64,000 nt of DNA from an uncultured Candidatus Saccharibacteria bacterium (GTDB taxonomy: Bacteria > Patescibacteriota > Minisyncoccia > Sungbacterales > HO2-52-23): the NCBI GenBank assembly GCA_964501445.1, contig CAZCSJ010000001.1, forward strand, positions 7,248-71,247, written 5' to 3'. Position numbers and translations under genes: made by a program. The notes under the pieces were generated by a model. The model was not told where the DNA came from, did not search any database, and worked only from the letters and a program-made list of their open reading frames with translations. This document shows, piece after piece, positions 2,389 through 61,871 of this stretch (position 1 is the first letter of the stretch; each line of letters begins with the position of its first letter).

Positions 2389-4941
2389 TTAGAACCCTTG
2401 AAGCAGTTGTATGAGTTTCTCTCGCATCGTCTCTAAGATTTGAGAAATAACCGCGAGGTTTTTGGCGCGGGTATCAATGGAGGAAGTGGTGGTGGAGGTA
2501 ATAGGGGCTTGCAAGGGAAAAATCAATTCATCGTCTTTCGAGGATGAATTATCCCCCGGAGTTTTTTGGCAAGTAACTCGGATATGTAAATTATTGCGGG
2601 ATTCATAGTATGGATCAGTACTACGGGCGTATAACTGTATGCTACCTGATGGGGGAATGAAGTTTACTATTCCTACTGGTGACCATATACCGCCGCCTAC
2701 CTTCGGAATAGGATATCCGCTTTCTAAGCAGGTACCTGCTCCGCTAGAAGTCCATGAAACAGTGAGTACCGAATTATAAGGAACTGACGACAGTTGGTCT
2801 TGTCCGTTTACTTTTACGTCCACGCTCATCGGAGTAGCCGCAGGTGTGGTTGCCGAAACCGGACTTGACTGCGCCGATACGTTGCCTGCGGCATCATACG
2901 CGGCAACGGTGTAGGTATATGTCGTGGCGGCGGTAAGTCCGTTAAGTCCAAGATCAGTGAAGCTCGTATATGGACTATTGGTTAGAAAAGCTCCGTTTCG
3001 GTATACTTTGTATCCAGTAACCCCACCCACATCATCCCTAGAAGCTGACCATGAAAGATTGATTTGGGTTGAAGAAATGACATTCGCGTTAAGGTTACCG
3101 GGGATTGAAGGAGCAGAGGTGTCTGCAAATGTGGTGATAGAAGCCGTATTTGATTGCGCTGATATATTTCCCGCCACATCATACGCGGCAACGGTATAGG
3201 TATACGTCGTGGAAGGAGCAAGTCCGAGATCGGTGTAACCGATAGAAGAGACAGTCATTACCAAAGTTCCATTTCGATATATTTTGTAACCGGCTACGCC
3301 AACAACATCAGTAGAGGCACTCCACAACAAATCAACTCTGGTGGTTGGAACGAAGGATGTATTAATTTGGTAGGAAAAAGCGAGGGCAGTAGCAGTAAAA
3401 TTGGCTGGTGTTGAGGGGGCGATGGTATCGGTAGTAGCGGTAGAAGTAGTAGGCGGGTTGAGCGTGATTTTGATTGTATCATGCACACCCGGCCAATTTG
3501 GAGGCGTGGAGCAGTAAGCCCCAATATCAATTACTAATTGGTTGGGGAAATTGGCGTGCCGAGCGTAGAGTTGTGTACTGCCGGAGAGCGGTATACCGCT
3601 ATTCGAACTGTCGCCTATTGGATATGGCCATTGGCTATTACCGTTCGCGCCCGGGACGATAGAGCCTTCTCTCGCACAGTTCGTGGCTCCGGATGAGGTC
3701 CAAGTTACGTTGAGAATGGAGTTATAGGGAACGTTTGAAAGCGTATCCTGACCATTGACTTTTACATCTACTGATATCGGGGCGGATGCGGTGGTGGTTG
3801 TCGCGGTGGTGGCAGTTGTTGCAAGCGTTGTTGCCGAAACCGGAGATGACGATGCTGAGAAATTTCCCGCAGCATCATACGCGGCAATGGTGTAGGTATA
3901 TGTTATGAAAGCGAAGCGTCCGGTATCACTATAACTGGTAGAACTATTATTCGCTGCAAAAGTTCCGTTTCGATATATTTGGTAACCGGCTACGCCGACA
4001 TTATCGGTTGCAGCTGTCCATGAAAGGTTGATCTGCGAAGATGAAATTGCCGTAGCAGTAAGATTGATCGGTACAGAAGGAGAGATGACATCAGTTGTAG
4101 AAGTCGCTGTGGTTGATGTGGAAGTAGATGTCGACTGGGCCGGTACTGCTGGTGTCGCGGGGATTGCCGACGTAGCGGGTTGAGCAGGAGTGGCGGGAGT
4201 AGCCGGTATGGCAGGGGTTATTCCCGATGGAGTAGTAGTGGCCGTTGTGGTAGTAGTCGTTGTCGCAGTTTGTTGAACCGGTATCGCCAGAATAGTTGTT
4301 GTTCCGGTAAGGCCCATTGGTTGAGCGGGGATGGTACCAGATGGAGTAGAGGTAGGGATTGTCGCGACGGGAATTCTCAGTAATCCCGGCGGAACAACAC
4401 CCGATGCTCCTGCACCATACGCTAAGAGACCCTGTACCACTCCCCTGCCAAGCTCTTGGAACTTCGCAAGGGTTTTGGGCCCTACAATCCCTACTGATTC
4501 AATCCCATGTTTTTCCTGCCATTTTTTTACCGCTTTTTCCGTGAGAGGACCAAAAAAGCCGGTGATAAGACCGTTGGGATAGATTTCCTTATCTCTTGCG
4601 AGAAATGCCTGGAGTTTGCGCACATCGTCGCCGGATGCGCCGCGGGAAAGAGGGCGGGTAAGTTCTGGGGGGGTTGCTTCGGGTTCTACAGGGGGAACAT
4701 CGGGAAGGATTGCTGACGGAGTGGTTTTGCTCGTTGGAGTTGCTTTTTCCGGTTCTTGGCCGAGTTCTCCCTGTAATGTTGCTACCTGCTGTTGGAGCGC
4801 CTGGATTTGTTTCAAGAGGTCCTGAATTTGTTTTTGGAGGTCGGCAGTAGAAAGTTTTTGATCGGCGCTTTGGGCGAAAACAAAAAATGGGGTGGCAAGA
4901 AGTAGTAATAACGTAATAGATGCAATGGAAAAGTTTTTCAT
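2389..4941 (-). CDS. Secreted cell-surface protein: signal peptide, coiled coil, peptidoglycan-binding domain, Thr/Pro linkers, 3 FN3-like domains and 2 copies of a Cys-containing Ig-like module
   Basis: 850 aa. N-terminal hydrophobic signal. PG_binding_1-like DDVRKLQAFLA...GFFGPLTEKAVKKWQ. FN3-like INLSW(T/S)A..D.VGV.GY.IYRNG repeated. The module VDVKVNGQD.LS.VPYNS.L.V.WTSSGA..C...GS.QLYAR occurs twice. Confidence 0.8.
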   Translation of the reverse strand: MKNFSIASITLLLLLATPFFVFAQSADQKLSTADLQKQIQDLLKQIQALQQQVATLQGELGQEPEKATPTSKTTPSAILPDVPPVEPEATPPELTRPLSRGASGDDVRKLQAFLARDKEIYPNGLITGFFGPLTEKAVKKWQEKHGIESVGIVGPKTLAKFQELGRGVVQGLLAYGAGASGVVPPGLLRIPVATIPTSTPSGTIPAQPMGLTGTTTILAIPVQQTATTTTTTTATTTPSGITPAIPATPATPAQPATSAIPATPAVPAQSTSTSTSTTATSTTDVISPSVPINLTATAISSSQINLSWTAATDNVGVAGYQIYRNGTFAANNSSTSYSDTGRFAFITYTYTIAAYDAAGNFSASSSPVSATTLATTATTATTTTASAPISVDVKVNGQDTLSNVPYNSILNVTWTSSGATNCAREGSIVPGANGNSQWPYPIGDSSNSGIPLSGSTQLYARHANFPNQLVIDIGAYCSTPPNWPGVHDTIKITLNPPTTSTATTDTIAPSTPANFTATALAFSYQINTSFVPTTRVDLLWSASTDVVGVAGYKIYRNGTLVMTVSSIGYTDLGLAPSTTYTYTVAAYDVAGNISAQSNTASITTFADTSAPSIPGNLNANVISSTQINLSWSASRDDVGGVTGYKVYRNGAFLTNSPYTSFTDLGLNGLTAATTYTYTVAAYDAAGNVSAQSSPVSATTPAATPMSVDVKVNGQDQLSSVPYNSVLTVSWTSSGAGTCLESGYPIPKVGGGIWSPVGIVNFIPPSGSIQLYARSTDPYYESRNNLHIRVTCQKTPGDNSSSKDDELIFPLQAPITSTTTSSIDTRAKNLAVISQILETMREKLIQLLQGF

Positions 4942-5128
4942 AAGAGAGGTCTAGACGTGTATCTTTTCAAAAGTATACCATGCCAAGCGGCAACATAAAA
5001 AGCATGTTGTGCACAAGGCGCATGCCATTCTGTAGCTTTAGCGAAAGATGGCTGCCCGGGCGGGAACTCCTCGATAAACTACCACACGGAATGTTATAGA
5101 ACTTCGGGGTAACATTCGGAGTTAGGTA

Positions 5129-5824
5129 TTATTTCTGTAACACAACATGAATCCAAAATAATTTGTCTTTTCTAAAATACTCTTTCTTTTTTAGAATCAT
5201 ACCGAGGGTCTCAAACTGCTCAATATATTTCTTACTACACCAATCTTCATTGCGCCACGGACGGACATTATGTGTAATCAAAATTCTTCCATCAGATTTC
5301 AATACATTCACAAATTTCTTAAGAATCTGAAAAAACTCGTCTGGTATATATGTATCTCCTAAATAATAAAGCACTTCTCCTAAAACTATTAGATTAAATT
5401 TTTCTTGAAACTCCATATCGCGTATATTTCCTGCCAAAAATTGTATATTTTTACTGTTTCCTAGTCGTTCTTTTGCGCGTACAATAGCTTCTTCTGAAAT
5501 ATCAACCGCAACTACCTCGTTACATAGTATAGAGATATGTTCGGCAAAATACCCCATACCCGTTCCTACATCAAGACATCTTTCATATTTTTTATCTGAA
5601 ATAAGTTGTATGGAAGAATACACCTGTTCGGTATTTTTATTTCTTCCCCACGGATCAATATCTTTCTTGTATACATCCTCCATATCCCATTTTTTCTTTA
5701 GATCAAAAAGAAAAACTACTGGGTTCTTCAAAAATTTTGTAAAGAAATCAATCATCGTGATATACCACATGGCCGCAGGTGCTATTCTTATAGGCATTTT
5801 ACCGCGAGCGCAGTTTTCATACAT
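5129..5824 (-). CDS. Class I SAM-dependent methyltransferase (NodS-like)
   Basis: 231 aa. DPWGR motif followed by the SAM-binding LDVGTGMGYF and VVAVDISEEAI. The gene is visibly AT-rich relative to its neighbours. The start codon is uncertain. Confidence 0.8.
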   Translation of the reverse strand: MYENCARGKMPIRIAPAAMWYITMIDFFTKFLKNPVVFLFDLKKKWDMEDVYKKDIDPWGRNKNTEQVYSSIQLISDKKYERCLDVGTGMGYFAEHISILCNEVVAVDISEEAIVRAKERLGNSKNIQFLAGNIRDMEFQEKFNLIVLGEVLYYLGDTYIPDEFFQILKKFVNVLKSDGRILITHNVRPWRNEDWCSKKYIEQFETLGMILKKKEYFRKDKLFWIHVVLQK

Positions 5825-5863
5825 TTTCTCTTGGGAACTCCATTCGTAGGACTCCCAGTAATG

Positions 5864-5936
5864 CTGCCGGGCCAGGGATCGAACCTGGAGTCTTTTGGTC
5901 CAGAGCCAAACGTGTTACCAATTACACCACCCGGCA
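5864..5936 (-). tRNA. tRNA-Gln (anticodon CTG)
   Basis: Manual cloverleaf, 73 nt: acceptor TGCCGGG/CCCGGCA (U1-A72, G73 as in bacterial tRNA-Gln), D arm GTGT/ACAC, anticodon loop CTCTGGA, T arm CCAGG-TTCGATC-CCTGG. No encoded CCA. Confidence 0.9.
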
Positions 5937-5946
5937 ATACGAAAAA

Positions 5947-5980
5947 ATGAAAGCGTTCCGATAACACGGAACGCTTTCAT
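5947..5980 (-). terminator. Intrinsic terminator downstream of ftsX
   Basis: Perfect 14-bp stem ATGAAAGCGTTCCG/CGGAACGCTTTCAT with a 6-nt loop, followed on the minus strand by TTTTTT. Confidence 0.75.
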
Positions 5981-6012
5981 TGTAGGCGAAACGGGTGAAT
6001 TTTTCAATCTCG

Positions 6013-6918
6013 TCAGATGTGCAGATACCGACGAATCGCGATGGCGCTTGAAATGACGCCAAGCCCCACTCCTGCAACGAGCATCACCAAGAAAAACTCC
6101 CAGAAATTCGTGAGGAAATAATTCTGGAGATTGAAACTTGGAACCAACACGCTGATTTTTGGAGAAAGGGTCCATGCGATCGGAAAGAAAAGAAGTGTCG
6201 TTATCACCGCCGCAACCGCGCCGTAGAGCACCCCGGTTACGAGAAAGGGCCCTCGGATAAACCACTGAGTCGCGCCCACAAGCCGCATGATGCCGATTTC
6301 TTCCCGCATGGTGTAAATCGCAAGACGCACGGTGTTAAACGCCACAAGGACCGCAGTGAAGGCAAGGAGTACTATGAGCCCCGCACCCAGACGCCGCGTG
6401 GTTCCCAGAATCGCGCCGAGGCGGTCAATCACCATCTGATTTTCAAAGTAATTCACCTTGTCCACAACTGGATAGTTTTTATCAAGCAAAAACTCGCTGA
6501 TGGACGCATACTCAGCCGCGTCTTTTGCTTTGATATTTACACTCGCCACAAGAGGGTTTTCGCCCAGTTCCTCCAGCGCATCAAGGATGAGGGCGTTACC
6601 GCTGTGCTTCTGACGGAAAATGACCAACGCCTCGTCCCGCGAGATATACGAAACCTCGGCAACCGCCGGAAGCGACTCAAGGTCGTGCTTCACCGAAAGA
6701 ATCCCCTCCTCCGGCGCATCCTCTTTGAAATACACCGTCACGTCAATTTTTTCCTCAAGTGCCGCAATCACGGTTGATGTGAGTGCAGAGAGAAATACGA
6801 GATTCCCGAGCACAAAGAGTGCCAGCACCATAATCAAAACCGTTGCGGTGGAGAGCCAGCCGTTGCGGCGGAAACTGAGATATCCTGCATAAATAATTCT
6901 CCGAAGATTTACGAGCAT
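6013..6918 (-). CDS. ftsX: Cell-division ABC transporter permease FtsX
   Basis: 301 aa. N-terminal TM, periplasmic domain and 3 C-terminal TMs (FtsX topology). Downstream of ftsE. Confidence 0.9.
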   Translation of the reverse strand: MLVNLRRIIYAGYLSFRRNGWLSTATVLIMVLALFVLGNLVFLSALTSTVIAALEEKIDVTVYFKEDAPEEGILSVKHDLESLPAVAEVSYISRDEALVIFRQKHSGNALILDALEELGENPLVASVNIKAKDAAEYASISEFLLDKNYPVVDKVNYFENQMVIDRLGAILGTTRRLGAGLIVLLAFTAVLVAFNTVRLAIYTMREEIGIMRLVGATQWFIRGPFLVTGVLYGAVAAVITTLLFFPIAWTLSPKISVLVPSFNLQNYFLTNFWEFFLVMLVAGVGLGVISSAIAIRRYLHI

Positions 6919-7089: not shown

Positions 7090-7770
<681 letters not shown>

Positions 7771-59029: not shown

Positions 59030-59569
59030 ATGCCCCAAAAGATTATTGATCTCCGAAAGAATGCGGCCGCTTCCCCTGCGGTTTCAGCGCCTCTTCCACG
59101 CGCTCCAAAGATACCCGACGCGATTGAGTGGTCCATACCCGCATTTGAACGCGGGAATCGTGATGTGGCATCACTCGCGTTTCCGGGAATTGCAGCACTC
59201 CTTCTCGTCATCCTTGCGATTTTCATCAAAAGCTACTTTTTTGCCGTGTTTGTCGCGCTTGCCTACGGGGTGCTCTTACTGTATGGTTTCCGTGAGCCGC
59301 GCATGATTTCCTGCCGCATCGCAAAAGAAGGGGTTGCGATTGGCCGGAAGAAGTATGGGTATGGCGATTTTGAATCCTTCTGTCTCTTCACAGGAGGAAC
59401 ACCCCATGAACTCTCCCTTGCCGTAAAAAGCGGATTGCTCCCCTTTATTCGCATGCCGCTTACGAATGTATCTTCGGAGGAGGTGCGCGCGACTCTCCTG
59501 CAATTTCTCCCCGAGAAAGAGCATCAGGAAGCCGCGTCCGACCAAATCGCGCGGACGCTGGGGCTTTAA
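59030..59569 (+). CDS. Two-TM membrane protein, function unknown
   Basis: 179 aa with two adjacent hydrophobic helices and a C-terminal soluble domain. No motif recognised. Confidence 0.6.
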   Translation: MPQKIIDLRKNAAASPAVSAPLPRAPKIPDAIEWSIPAFERGNRDVASLAFPGIAALLLVILAIFIKSYFFAVFVALAYGVLLLYGFREPRMISCRIAKEGVAIGRKKYGYGDFESFCLFTGGTPHELSLAVKSGLLPFIRMPLTNVSSEEVRATLLQFLPEKEHQEAASDQIARTLGL

Positions 59570-59675
59570 TTCTATGTCCTCATAGCCCCGACGCTTCATT
59601 TAAAAAGTTACAATAAAAGAAGTCGGGGTCCCGACCGAAGCGTCGGGACTCAATCGGACCCCGCACTAAAACTAT

Positions 59676-59747
59676 GTCCCCATAGCTCAACGGATAGAGC
59701 GTGAGTTTGCGGAGCTCAAGATCGAGGTTCGATTCCTCGTGGGGACG
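59676..59747 (+). tRNA. tRNA-Arg (anticodon GCG)
   Basis: 72 nt. Acceptor GTCCCCA/TGGGGAC, D arm GCTC/GAGC, anticodon loop TTGCGGA, T arm CGAGG-TTCGATT-CCTCG, G73. Confidence 0.88.
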
Positions 59748-59958
59748 CAAAAAAAGTGTTGGGGTGAAAGTCCTGTCGGGCACGCAATCGAGGAAAATTC
59801 GGAAAAGCAGCGGAGCCGCACCGCTCAAAACCGCCATAGTTCGATAAACTCACGACGAGAAGAACCCGTAGAAAAACAACTCTACTGAGTTTGTCGAAGT
59901 GGGGGAAGAAAATTTTTTAATTATAGAATAAAATTTCAATAATTAGTGCCCTGAACAT

Positions 59959-60615
59959 ATGAATCAAAAAGGTTTTACAAATGTTGTTTTAGTCTTAGTA
60001 ATCTTCTTGGTCGTAGGAGTAATCGGCTATTTTGCTTTTGTAAAAAAGTCAGCTCCGACTGCTCAACAAACACCAACACCTGTTCAAACAGAAACTGTCT
60101 CCCCAACTCCAATACCGGAAGATGGAACGGTGAATTGGAAAACTTACTCGAACAGCAAATATAATTTTTCTCTGAAATATCCAGATGGATGGGCAATTGA
60201 AGAATCTTCACGGGCAGATACAATAGGTAGAGTAATTTCTTTGAGAAGCCCAGAGATTGCACAGTTATTGCAAGAAAGAAAAATTGATTCTGGTTATTCA
60301 TATAACTTGATAATTTCATTTTGGCCAGACATCAATAACGAATACGCCCGTGGCGGTAGTTGGATTGGTCAAAGAAATTACACCAGTTTGGTAGATTATT
60401 TCACTGACAAAAACGCATTGAAGCGAAAGACTGGGAATATAAATGTTGCTGGCCAAAACGCTTACGAAGTAAGTATCGGTGGCGCCGGGCTTAATTATGG
60501 CGTTATGATTGAGCATAATGGAATTTATGAATTATCATTTGAAACGGCTTGGGATAAGTCAAAGCTTGGTCCTGTCGAAAAACAAATTTTGTCTACCTTT
60601 CAATTCTCGAGATAG
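59959..60615 (+). CDS. Membrane-anchored secreted protein (TM, Thr/Pro linker, W.TY.N..Y.FS.KYP domain)
   Basis: 218 aa. AT-rich. This domain pattern is common among uncharacterised small-genome bacterial exoproteins. Confidence 0.7.
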   Translation: MNQKGFTNVVLVLVIFLVVGVIGYFAFVKKSAPTAQQTPTPVQTETVSPTPIPEDGTVNWKTYSNSKYNFSLKYPDGWAIEESSRADTIGRVISLRSPEIAQLLQERKIDSGYSYNLIISFWPDINNEYARGGSWIGQRNYTSLVDYFTDKNALKRKTGNINVAGQNAYEVSIGGAGLNYGVMIEHNGIYELSFETAWDKSKLGPVEKQILSTFQFSR

Positions 60616-60776
60616 TTTGTAAGGATCTGCCACCAAAGAAAAACCTCAGTCGTAGAACGCTACGCATTCACTACGTGACAGGTTTGAAATTGTCGGCGTC
60701 TGTGATCATTTTTTTGGGGGGGGTGCTATCCGCGTGCTATAGCACGTTTTGATTGACAAGGTTATAATCAATCTAT

Positions 60777-60980
60777 ATGCACAGGGACTCTTTTTTTAGA
60801 TTTTACGCCAATTTACCTATCGGGGTTCGGCGCGAGGTTATTTTGGATTTGCCAGAACGAGGCCCTATCACTTGGGAGGTTGCCTATAGGGAAATAAACG
60901 AGGACTCAGAACTGGGCAAGGTAATTCTACAAAAACTTGTTGAGTTGGAATTTATTCCTGTTGGAGATAAGCGAAAATAA
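60777..60980 (+). CDS. Hypothetical 67-aa protein (first gene of the islet operon)
   Basis: The ATG lies 8 nt downstream of a TATAAT box. 2-nt gap to the next ORF. No motif recognised. Confidence 0.55.
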   Translation: MHRDSFFRFYANLPIGVRREVILDLPERGPITWEVAYREINEDSELGKVILQKLVELEFIPVGDKRK

Positions 60981-60982
60981 TC

Positions 60983-61243
60983 ATGGAAGAAAAAAACGAA
61001 GCTCAAACCATTTCTGATTCTGAGGATATAATAAACCTCGTAATAGCGAGGTTAAAGACCATTCCCTCAAATGTTGAATTGTCGATAGGAAACGAGGGCA
61101 GTTTTTCCATTGATGAGTTAATAGAAAGAGTCAAAAAGCAAGATAACATTGGTAGGAAAATGATAGAGATGCAACTGGCGTATTTACGTTCACTCGGTAA
61201 CTTACCTACTCAAGAATTACAAAATGCTCCTGCTATTAACTAG
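60983..61243 (+). CDS. Hypothetical 86-aa acidic protein
   Basis: Tightly coupled to both neighbours. No motif recognised. Confidence 0.55.
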   Translation: MEEKNEAQTISDSEDIINLVIARLKTIPSNVELSIGNEGSFSIDELIERVKKQDNIGRKMIEMQLAYLRSLGNLPTQELQNAPAIN

Positions 61244-61838
61244 GCCACGATACGACAGACCAACGCATTACCTGTTCTATTGGGCAGGTCTTTTAATTGA
61301 TGAAGCAAAGAAGAGAGGTATTGAGGTCATAGATTTAGACAAAAGCAAAGCAAAAAAGAAGAAACTACACAGCTATTTAGCAAAACAACCCATTGATGTT
61401 GTTATTTTGAATGGGCACGGAAATCAAGAAGCAGTTGCTGGTCAAGAAGAAATTATTCTTTCAATTGGAAACGGCACTGATCTCCTTAAAAATAAAACGG
61501 TGTTCGTAAGAGCGTGCGATGCGGGGGTGATATTGGGTAAAGAAATAATGAGAAATGGCGCAAAGGGTTTTATCGGCTACATTCAACCATTTATGTTTTT
61601 GATAGACAAAGATTCCCTCAATAAACCGCTTGAGGATGAATTGGCGGCCCCAGTTCTTGAGTGCTCAAATCAAGTCGGAACCTCTTTAATTAAAGGAAAA
61701 TCGGCAACAGAAGCACAAAAAGACAGTATCGATAAATACGCAAAAATGATTGATGGGTTTTCTTCAAGCGAGGCAACCAACTCTTTTTTGTTACCGATCC
61801 TGTTGTGGAATATGACGAGTCAGGTTTGCTACATCTGA
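61224..61838 (+). CDS. Minimal caspase-like (clan CD His/Cys dyad) protein
   Basis: 204 aa. DVVILNGHGN (His65) and KTVFVRACDAG (Cys98), each following a hydrophobic strand, as in caspase, CHAT and gingipain cores. Confidence 0.6.
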   Translation: MLLLLTRPRYDRPTHYLFYWAGLLIDEAKKRGIEVIDLDKSKAKKKKLHSYLAKQPIDVVILNGHGNQEAVAGQEEIILSIGNGTDLLKNKTVFVRACDAGVILGKEIMRNGAKGFIGYIQPFMFLIDKDSLNKPLEDELAAPVLECSNQVGTSLIKGKSATEAQKDSIDKYAKMIDGFSSSEATNSFLLPILLWNMTSQVCYI

Positions 61839-61871
61839 ACTTGTCTAAATGAGGAGGCATCTCTCTTTTTT

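Follow-up and report, generated by a model that had tools for sequence, protein, structure and literature searches.

Three small, tightly packed genes in the genome of an uncultured Candidatus Saccharibacteria bacterium (GenBank assembly GCA_964501445.1, contig CAZCSJ010000001.1) form an obligate operon, a new three-gene architecture that includes a new family of clan CD. The genes lie at 60777-61838 of the stretch analysed here, a window of 64,000 nucleotides comprising positions 7,248 to 71,247 of the contig (forward strand). The last of them encodes a protein of 204 amino acids that is very probably, to judge from its modelled structure, a catalytically competent minimal peptidase of clan CD; its family is absent from the libraries searched. 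The two genes upstream encode still smaller proteins, called here partner A and partner B. Together with their promoter, the three genes make up a cassette of about 1.1 kb that is transferred horizontally, as one unit, between Patescibacteria, DPANN archaea and some Euryarchaeota. The most plausible role for the cassette, in view of its horizontal transfer, its own promoter and its occasional toxin-antitoxin (TA) or recombinase neighbours, would be that of a conflict module or one that resembles TA systems. The combined proposition, that a minimal clan CD peptidase within an obligate, mobile three-gene operon acts as a TA-like conflict module, may as easily be wrong as right; most of the weight falls on the identity of the enzyme and the unity of the operon, and the TA-like mechanism itself is put forward tentatively. 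The pertinent features of the cassette are these:

60719-60776, + strand: 5' boundary and promoter region of the shared cassette (homology to the cassettes of other genomes starts at 60719-60726)
60777-60980, + strand: open reading frame (ORF) of partner A, 67 amino acids
60983-61243, + strand: ORF of partner B, 86 amino acids, beginning after a 2-nucleotide gap
61224-61838, + strand: ORF of the clan CD-fold cysteine peptidase homologue, 204 amino acids, overlapping that of partner B by 20 nucleotides
61416-61418, + strand: codon of His65, the predicted catalytic histidine, in the motif NGHG at the C-terminal end of strand 59-63; found in all 259 members covering the column
61515-61517, + strand: codon of Cys98, the predicted catalytic cysteine, in the motif R-A-C-D-A-G at the C-terminal end of strand 92-96; present in 261 of 261 members
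61635-61637, + strand: codon of Asp138, in the motif P-L-x-D within the loop that follows strand 5; 259 of 260 members have it

The cassette was noticed in an earlier reading of the sequence (the original prediction), which gave the three ORFs with exactly these coordinates, gap and overlap, and the codons of His65 and Cys98 within VVILNGHGN and TVFVRACDAG; all of this was found as described. Each of the three ORFs belongs to a conserved family, so they are more than the products of chance.

The case for a clan CD enzyme begins with the fold. AlphaFold2, provided with an alignment of 28 sequences, models the 204-amino acid protein with a predicted local distance difference test score (pLDDT) of 96.9 and a predicted template modelling score (pTM) of 0.92. 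The model runs from beta1 (residues 2-7) through a helix, beta2 (34-39) and a second helix to beta3 (59-63), which leads into G64-H65-G66 and a hairpin, and then from beta4 (92-96), ending in A97-C98, through a helix to beta5 (115-119), three helices and beta6 (200-203). This is the alpha/beta/alpha sandwich with a six-stranded sheet expected of the clan, and it has the expected dyad: a His followed by Gly at the end of strand 3 and a small residue before the Cys at the end of strand 4. From this topology, the side chains of His65 and Cys98 would be juxtaposed. A Foldseek search with such a model was one of the checks proposed with the original prediction, and it places clan CD enzymes on top: of the 12 matches in the Protein Data Bank (PDB) with E <= 1e-3, all 12 belong to the clan. 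The best is a SAVED-CHAT protein (8tl0, E = 7e-6). Caspase-4, caspase-11, the CHAT domain of DdvA and the TPR-CHAT protein of Craspase also fall within the threshold, as does gingipain R (1cvr and 4ief, query-normalised TM-score 0.62-0.66), and C11 peptidases, separase and MALT1 come next in the list. In a library of viral structures, the model matches caspase-domain and clostripain proteins of giant viruses.

Conservation within the family agrees with the fold. Of 261 members retrieved, 259 cover the columns of both His65 and Cys98, and all 259 keep both residues. In the family alignments, G64, H65, G66, C98, G118, Y119 and F123 are invariant down to 29% identity. The original prediction had recognised in the sequence the dyad layout of clan CD peptidases, and the structural matches, the positions of the two residues at the ends of strands and their invariance bear it out. 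The protein is also, as had been supposed, a catalytic core with no additional domain. Asp138, nearly invariant as well, is a candidate for a residue of the S1 pocket or for a structural residue. By analogy with gingipain R, metacaspases and clostripain, the near invariance of Asp138 hints at a specificity for a basic residue (Arg/Lys) in P1.

Among known enzymes, the one most like the model is gingipain R (RgpB, MEROPS family C25 of clan CD), which gives the best TM-score of all the PDB matches. The two share the motif logic GHG ... h-F-h-x-x-A-C-x-x-G and a spacing of 33 residues between His and Cys, so that the gingipain-like spacing remarked on in the original prediction turns out to be identical. 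In a single ungapped register, H65 falls on His211 of RgpB and C98 on Cys244, with identities at 11 of 50 positions (GHG, A, F, AC, G). This is by far the best offset, and its score is reached by 0.9% of shuffled sequences. (The mature RgpB sequence was checked against the copy in PDB.) Beyond this, the two differ. RgpB is a secreted protein of about 435 amino acids that also has a prodomain at its N terminus, an additional sub-domain and an immunoglobulin-like domain, whereas the protein of the cassette is a cytoplasmic core of 204 amino acids; identity between them is about 10%; the family fails the Pfam model for C25; and the operon with two partners has no counterpart among the gingipains.

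The lowest E-values, from 7e-6 to 8e-4, belong to CHAT proteases: the SAVED-CHAT protein 8tl0 of type II CBASS-like (cyclic oligonucleotide-based antiphage signalling) or CRISPR-associated systems, and TPR-CHAT (Csx29) of the type III-E Craspase (7y84 and 8d9h). They have the same caspase-like core with a His/Cys dyad, and they belong to conflict systems of several genes, with the protease under the control of partner proteins. CHAT proteases, however, are fused to SAVED or TPR domains serving as sensors or adaptors and are coupled to nucleotide signalling or to CRISPR complexes, while the 204-amino acid protein carries no fused domain and does not match the CHAT model in Pfam. With caspases, metacaspases and orthocaspases (MEROPS C14) it has in common the fold, the order of strands, the His after beta3 and the Cys after beta4, and a Gly-Tyr segment after beta5 is reminiscent of the substrate-binding loop of caspases. 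It differs from them in lacking a match to Peptidase_C14 in Pfam, in its shorter His-Cys spacing and in having neither a p20/p10 linker nor a prodomain.

The family is large. An exhaustive profile search finds 2,131 clusters (at 50% identity) with E <= 1e-3, 290 of them with E <= 1e-30, and almost all of the best 150 are standalone proteins of 205-218 amino acids. A word-indexed search finds 111 close clusters, all of about 204 amino acids and all called hypothetical. The protein matches nothing in Pfam, NCBIfam, PADLOC or PHROGs, and PDB sequences give nothing meaningful even by profile. The family is unannotated, and a search of the literature on combinations of caspase-like proteins, clan CD, TA systems and the candidate phyla radiation (CPR) found no description of the cassette. 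Its carriers among Patescibacteria include Giovannoni-, Wolfe-, Kaiser-, Nomura- and Yanofskybacteria, Paceibacterota and Saccharimonadales; among archaea they include DPANN bins, Candidatus Methanoperedens and other metagenome-assembled genomes of Euryarchaeota. Loci L033 and L034 and clusters P0120 and P0114 come from bins labelled Candidatus Methanoperedens, Euryarchaeota and Methanosarcinales, and also Gammaproteobacteria and Thalassospira; the members with these last two labels may be mis-binned contigs. Methanoperedens is host to Borgs and plasmids. It had been suggested that other CPR genomes be searched for the same three-gene neighbourhood. The neighbourhood is indeed found there, but it is not confined to CPR, occurring in DPANN and Methanoperedens-type archaea as well.

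The operon, too, is conserved. Loci were collected through look-ups of exact proteins and from one genome per GTDB species, and all their ORFs were searched with hidden Markov models of both small proteins. Partners A and B lie directly upstream of the peptidase gene, always in this order and on its strand, in 35 loci including that of the window, which is to say in every locus with upstream sequence; the sole locus without them (L019) is on a contig cut off at its 5' end. The original prediction had asked whether homologues keep the synteny of the three genes, and they do so in every locus examined, at identities as low as 31% and in archaeal bins (Woesearchaeota, Methanosarcinales). When the flanking ORFs were clustered all against all, the three genes of the cassette alone recurred, with no fourth. 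Within the cassette, successive genes are separated by no more than 10 nucleotides or overlap in all 30 distinct loci, and the pairwise divergences of the three families co-vary (Mantel r = 0.86-0.88, reached in none of 2000 permutations).

Expression signals fit a single transcript. In the window, a TATAAT box at 60763-60768 ends 8 nucleotides before the first ATG, and a TATAAT-like box 7-12 nucleotides upstream of the first ATG, with no Shine-Dalgarno sequence, is present in many loci (e.g., L001, L011, L012, L016, L027, L029 and L032). A box so near the start suggests a leaderless or short-leader tricistronic mRNA across the lineages. Within the window's operon, a GGAGA motif ahead of gene 2 lies inside the end of gene 1, and the ATG of gene 3 is 20 nucleotides inside gene 2; since the genes abut or overlap, their translation is probably coupled.

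The surroundings of the cassette suggest that it is foreign to them:

59676-59748: tRNA-Arg(GCG)
about 59900-61840: low-GC islet (38.8% GC), containing the cassette and one unrelated upstream ORF
from 61872: ORF of a RecG-type helicase, 708 amino acids, part of which matches the Pfam-annotated RecG gene of locus L005

The cassette has a GC content of 39.6%, compared with 51.7% for the window, which puts it 3.3 standard deviations under the mean of 1.1-kb windows, and only one other patch of the window is equally rich in AT. The minus strand carries 41 of the 51 long ORFs. The islet between tRNA-Arg and recG, and the remainder of the window as GC-richer and mostly encoded on the minus strand, are thus much as first described. 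Nucleotide identity to the cassettes of other lineages is 82-86% and is confined to the stretch from 60719 (or 60726) to 61831, that is, to the promoter and the three genes. Horizontal transfer of a unit of about 1.1 kb is indicated by this confinement together with the discordant GC content, and because the homology ends at 60719 and 61831, the mobile unit is the cassette rather than the islet as a whole.

The flanking genes are different in each context. The cassette sits between unrelated genes, mostly of housekeeping function; among 118 neighbouring ORFs, MreB, gyrB, tRNA synthetases, ribosome recycling factor, thymidylate synthase and sigma-70 are examples. Some loci have nearby a serine recombinase, MNT/HepT, PemK, or HigB with HTH/M78. 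In the window, the scan for terminators found no terminator-like site between the stop of the cassette (61838) and the start of recG 33 nucleotides downstream, and transcription from the cassette promoter may therefore continue into recG. In three Giovannonibacteria loci (L005-L007), recG is likewise found no more than 4 kb from the cassette, in the opposite orientation. Two other origins were considered and set aside. An integrative island targeted to the tRNA gene and bounded by att repeats is not supported, as no direct repeat of the 3' end of the tRNA flanks the cassette, nor is an origin from a phage, plasmid or virus, as IMG/VR, INPHARED and PLSDB all gave no match.

The partners are less easily placed than the enzyme. 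Their families are recognised by these motifs:

partner A: F..YANLP...R.E..L.L...GPITWEVAY.EI...T.LG..IL.KL..L.FI.
partner B: I..LV.aRL.tIPsN..lSiG..GsF...ELI..Vk...eiGKk.IE.QL.yLRsL

By word-indexed search, the family of partner A has 1,702 clusters and that of partner B 613, all of them unannotated, and neither partner matches a Pfam model or a PDB sequence. No fusions among the three proteins appear in the top 120 matches for either partner. In both small genes substitutions fall mostly at third codon positions, so both are evidently under purifying selection. The alignments show folded cores that are conserved and N- and C-terminal tails that are variable. Each partner has an invariant Arg, R18 in partner A and R23 in partner B. 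The two families share the pattern (L/I)P-x-(N/D) ... G ... E(L/V) ... (L/I)G, and their profiles align over 44 columns (hhalign, P = 1e-4, probability 58%), which points to a weak paralogy between them. An AlphaFold model of partner A (pLDDT 84) has the topology alpha-alpha-beta hairpin-alpha-alpha, and Foldseek finds no similar fold for it in PDB (best E = 2.1). The L..L..L.FI motif had raised the idea of winged-helix or other DNA-binding partners, an idea that the lack of any PDB fold, Pfam match or PDB sequence match does not support.

What might such an operon do? Clan CD enzymes are normally held latent by prodomains, linkers or cofactors. Since the 204-amino acid core has none of these, control by the partners in trans is the simplest reading, and control in trans, combined with the behaviour of a selfish element, makes a TA-like conflict module the best model. 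According to this model, the two small partners would form a heterodimer that binds the peptidase, and the pair would serve in trans either as an inhibitor or pseudo-substrate, in the manner of an antitoxin, or as the dedicated substrate of the enzyme. The cassette would then behave as a TA-like conflict or addiction module: were the control by the partners lost, the peptidase would cleave proteins of the cell or of an invader. The arrangement resembles that of tripartite TA cassettes, such as the toxin-antitoxin-chaperone (TAC) type with HigB, HigA and a SecB-like chaperone, or PaaR-PaaA-ParE, which are likewise compact, self-promoted operons of three genes with small proteins upstream of a larger enzyme, likewise mobile and found in variable contexts. 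The present cassette sometimes sits beside other TA genes. The partners, however, differ from known antitoxins in having no helix-turn-helix (HTH), ribbon-helix-helix (RHH) or chaperone fold. A clan CD fold is not known to us from any TA toxin, and the literature searches yielded no example.

Several results weigh against the model, some against the enzyme and others against the role. The family passes none of the Pfam models for C14, CHAT, C25, C13 and C11: Peptidase_C14 (PF00656) and the CHAT domain (PF12770) match neither the protein of the window (scanned at E <= 10) nor any of 32 divergent members of the family (at E <= 1), so that the likeness to CHAT is structural only. Peptidase_C25 (PF01364) matches 3 of the 32, below threshold (best E = 0.1), and a few divergent members have subthreshold matches to Peptidase_C13 and U57. 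Aligned by hhalign with the single RgpB sequence, the family profile matches the GHG segment only and not significantly (P = 0.12). As to the role, no known antitoxin or DNA-binding fold (HTH, RHH or AbrB) was found in the partners by Foldseek of partner A and by Pfam, nor is there a recognisable DNA-binding antitoxin that could autoregulate through a conserved operator. A perfect 14-bp palindrome, CGTGCTATAGCACG, does overlap the -35 region of the cassette promoter (60733-60746; its score as a terminator-like hairpin is weak), and its half-site GTGCTAT is repeated at 60723-60729, but the palindrome is perfect in the window only. The closest cassettes have a degenerate form of it (GCTATAG) and distant ones lack it, which makes it a doubtful candidate for a conserved operator. 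Defence genes neither recur nor are enriched among the 118 neighbouring ORFs, and scans of IMG/VR (by pattern), of INPHARED phages and of PLSDB plasmids gave no match to the protein of the window or to an archaeal representative.

The lack of recurrent defence genes bears also on the other explanations. One might suppose that the cassette is an ordinary accessory operon with no part in conflict, in which the peptidase matures or turns over the partners, or uses them as adaptors, in some dedicated processing system, for example in regulated proteolysis within small-genome, episymbiotic organisms. In its favour, the three genes are strictly co-inherited and co-diverge, the neighbours are mostly housekeeping genes with no association with defence, and in the window recG follows the cassette directly, with no terminator between them. 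Against this, the discordant GC content and the restriction of homology to the cassette suggest that a self-contained unit has often been transferred horizontally, and no processing site is conserved in the variable tails of the partners. We regard such a system as unlikely, though it deserves serious weight. An anti-phage system acting by abortive infection, in which the partners sense infection and release or activate a caspase-like effector, is improbable. Its attraction is that SAVED-CHAT, the TPR-CHAT protein of Craspase and caspase-like relatives are established immune effectors and that the cassette is mobile, patchy and compact. Yet no PADLOC model (PADLOC-DB v2.0.0, E <= 10) matches any of the three proteins, PADLOC matches among the neighbouring ORFs are scattered and apparently to generic domains, no defence neighbours recur, the scans of neighbouring ORFs turned up neither CRISPR nor CBASS nor cyclase genes, and none of the three proteins has a recognisable sensor domain. 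The original prediction had spoken of a candidate conflict or defence module; the caspase-like core and the operon stand, while the defence role is left with no link to defence islands, phages or plasmids.

Perhaps the enzyme does not hydrolyse at all. Clan CD includes transamidases, and an enzyme of the caspase-hemoglobinase fold acting as a transamidase or ligase, of the GPI8 or legumain type, might join the two dedicated small proteins that always accompany it. The partners, however, have no conserved C-terminal tail or motif of the Gly-Gly type, and the top structural matches are all hydrolases; this explanation is very improbable. That the protein is instead a flavodoxin- or Rossmann-like protein and no peptidase, with the positions of His and Cys coincidental, is scarcely credible. 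Flavodoxins and flavin mononucleotide (FMN) reductases do appear in the Foldseek list, but only at E >= 2.8e-3, ranked under the 12 clan CD matches and with shorter alignments (e.g., 127 columns, query-normalised TM-score 0.38); no flavodoxin model in Pfam matches; and His and Cys are invariant in 259 of 259 members at the strand ends proper to clan CD.

The TA-like conflict module can also be cast in a bolder form, which seems to us rather unlikely: a new conflict or immune module of ultra-small episymbiotic prokaryotes (CPR, DPANN) and Methanoperedens-type archaea, in which a "proto-caspase" would be restrained by a trigger, a heterodimer of novel fold. On infection, or once the cassette is lost, the protease would be released and would kill or arrest the cell. 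If true, this would be the smallest known caspase-based system of cell suicide and the first case of a clan CD toxin in an architecture like that of TA systems.

A few other features of the window may be recorded. Within the islet, upstream of the cassette, an ORF of 218 amino acids (59959-60615, + strand) begins with a transmembrane segment and has a modest Pfam match to PsbP_2 (E = 1e-7; 32.6 bits, the cut-off being 27). It is low in GC, like the islet as a whole, and lies outside the conserved cassette and its nucleotide homology. Near the tRNA-Arg gene, nucleotides 59567-59586 are 85% identical to 59667-59686, a stretch of 20 nucleotides that covers the 5' end of the tRNA 100 nucleotides further on, and between the two is a 14-nucleotide inverted repeat (59584-59597 and 59637-59650, 93% complementary). 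The upstream copy may be a fragment of tRNA left by an old rearrangement. The second patch of low GC, at about 4500-6300 (minimum 37.8% GC), also adjoins a tRNA gene (tRNA-Gln, 5863-5936) and may be another horizontally acquired insert; an ORF of 231 amino acids there (5129-5824, minus strand) has the motif LDVGTGMGYF, like those of S-adenosylmethionine-dependent methyltransferases.

Caspase-like proteases are the central executioners of cell death in eukaryotes and are increasingly found as effectors of bacterial immunity, where, to our knowledge, large sensor machinery is always fused to them or coupled with them. The present family, by contrast, very large and unannotated, consists of bare cores of about 205 amino acids whose sole constant companions are two tiny proteins without a recognised fold, carried on a mobile cassette that spans the divide between bacteria and archaea. 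Few conflict systems are known to us from the lineages that host it. If the cassette is a module of the conflict or TA type, it would represent a new architecture for controlling a caspase-type enzyme and would offer a minimal, tractable model of the regulation of clan CD in trans. Whatever its role, it provides a new family of peptidases and two families of small proteins to annotate in thousands of metagenomic genomes.

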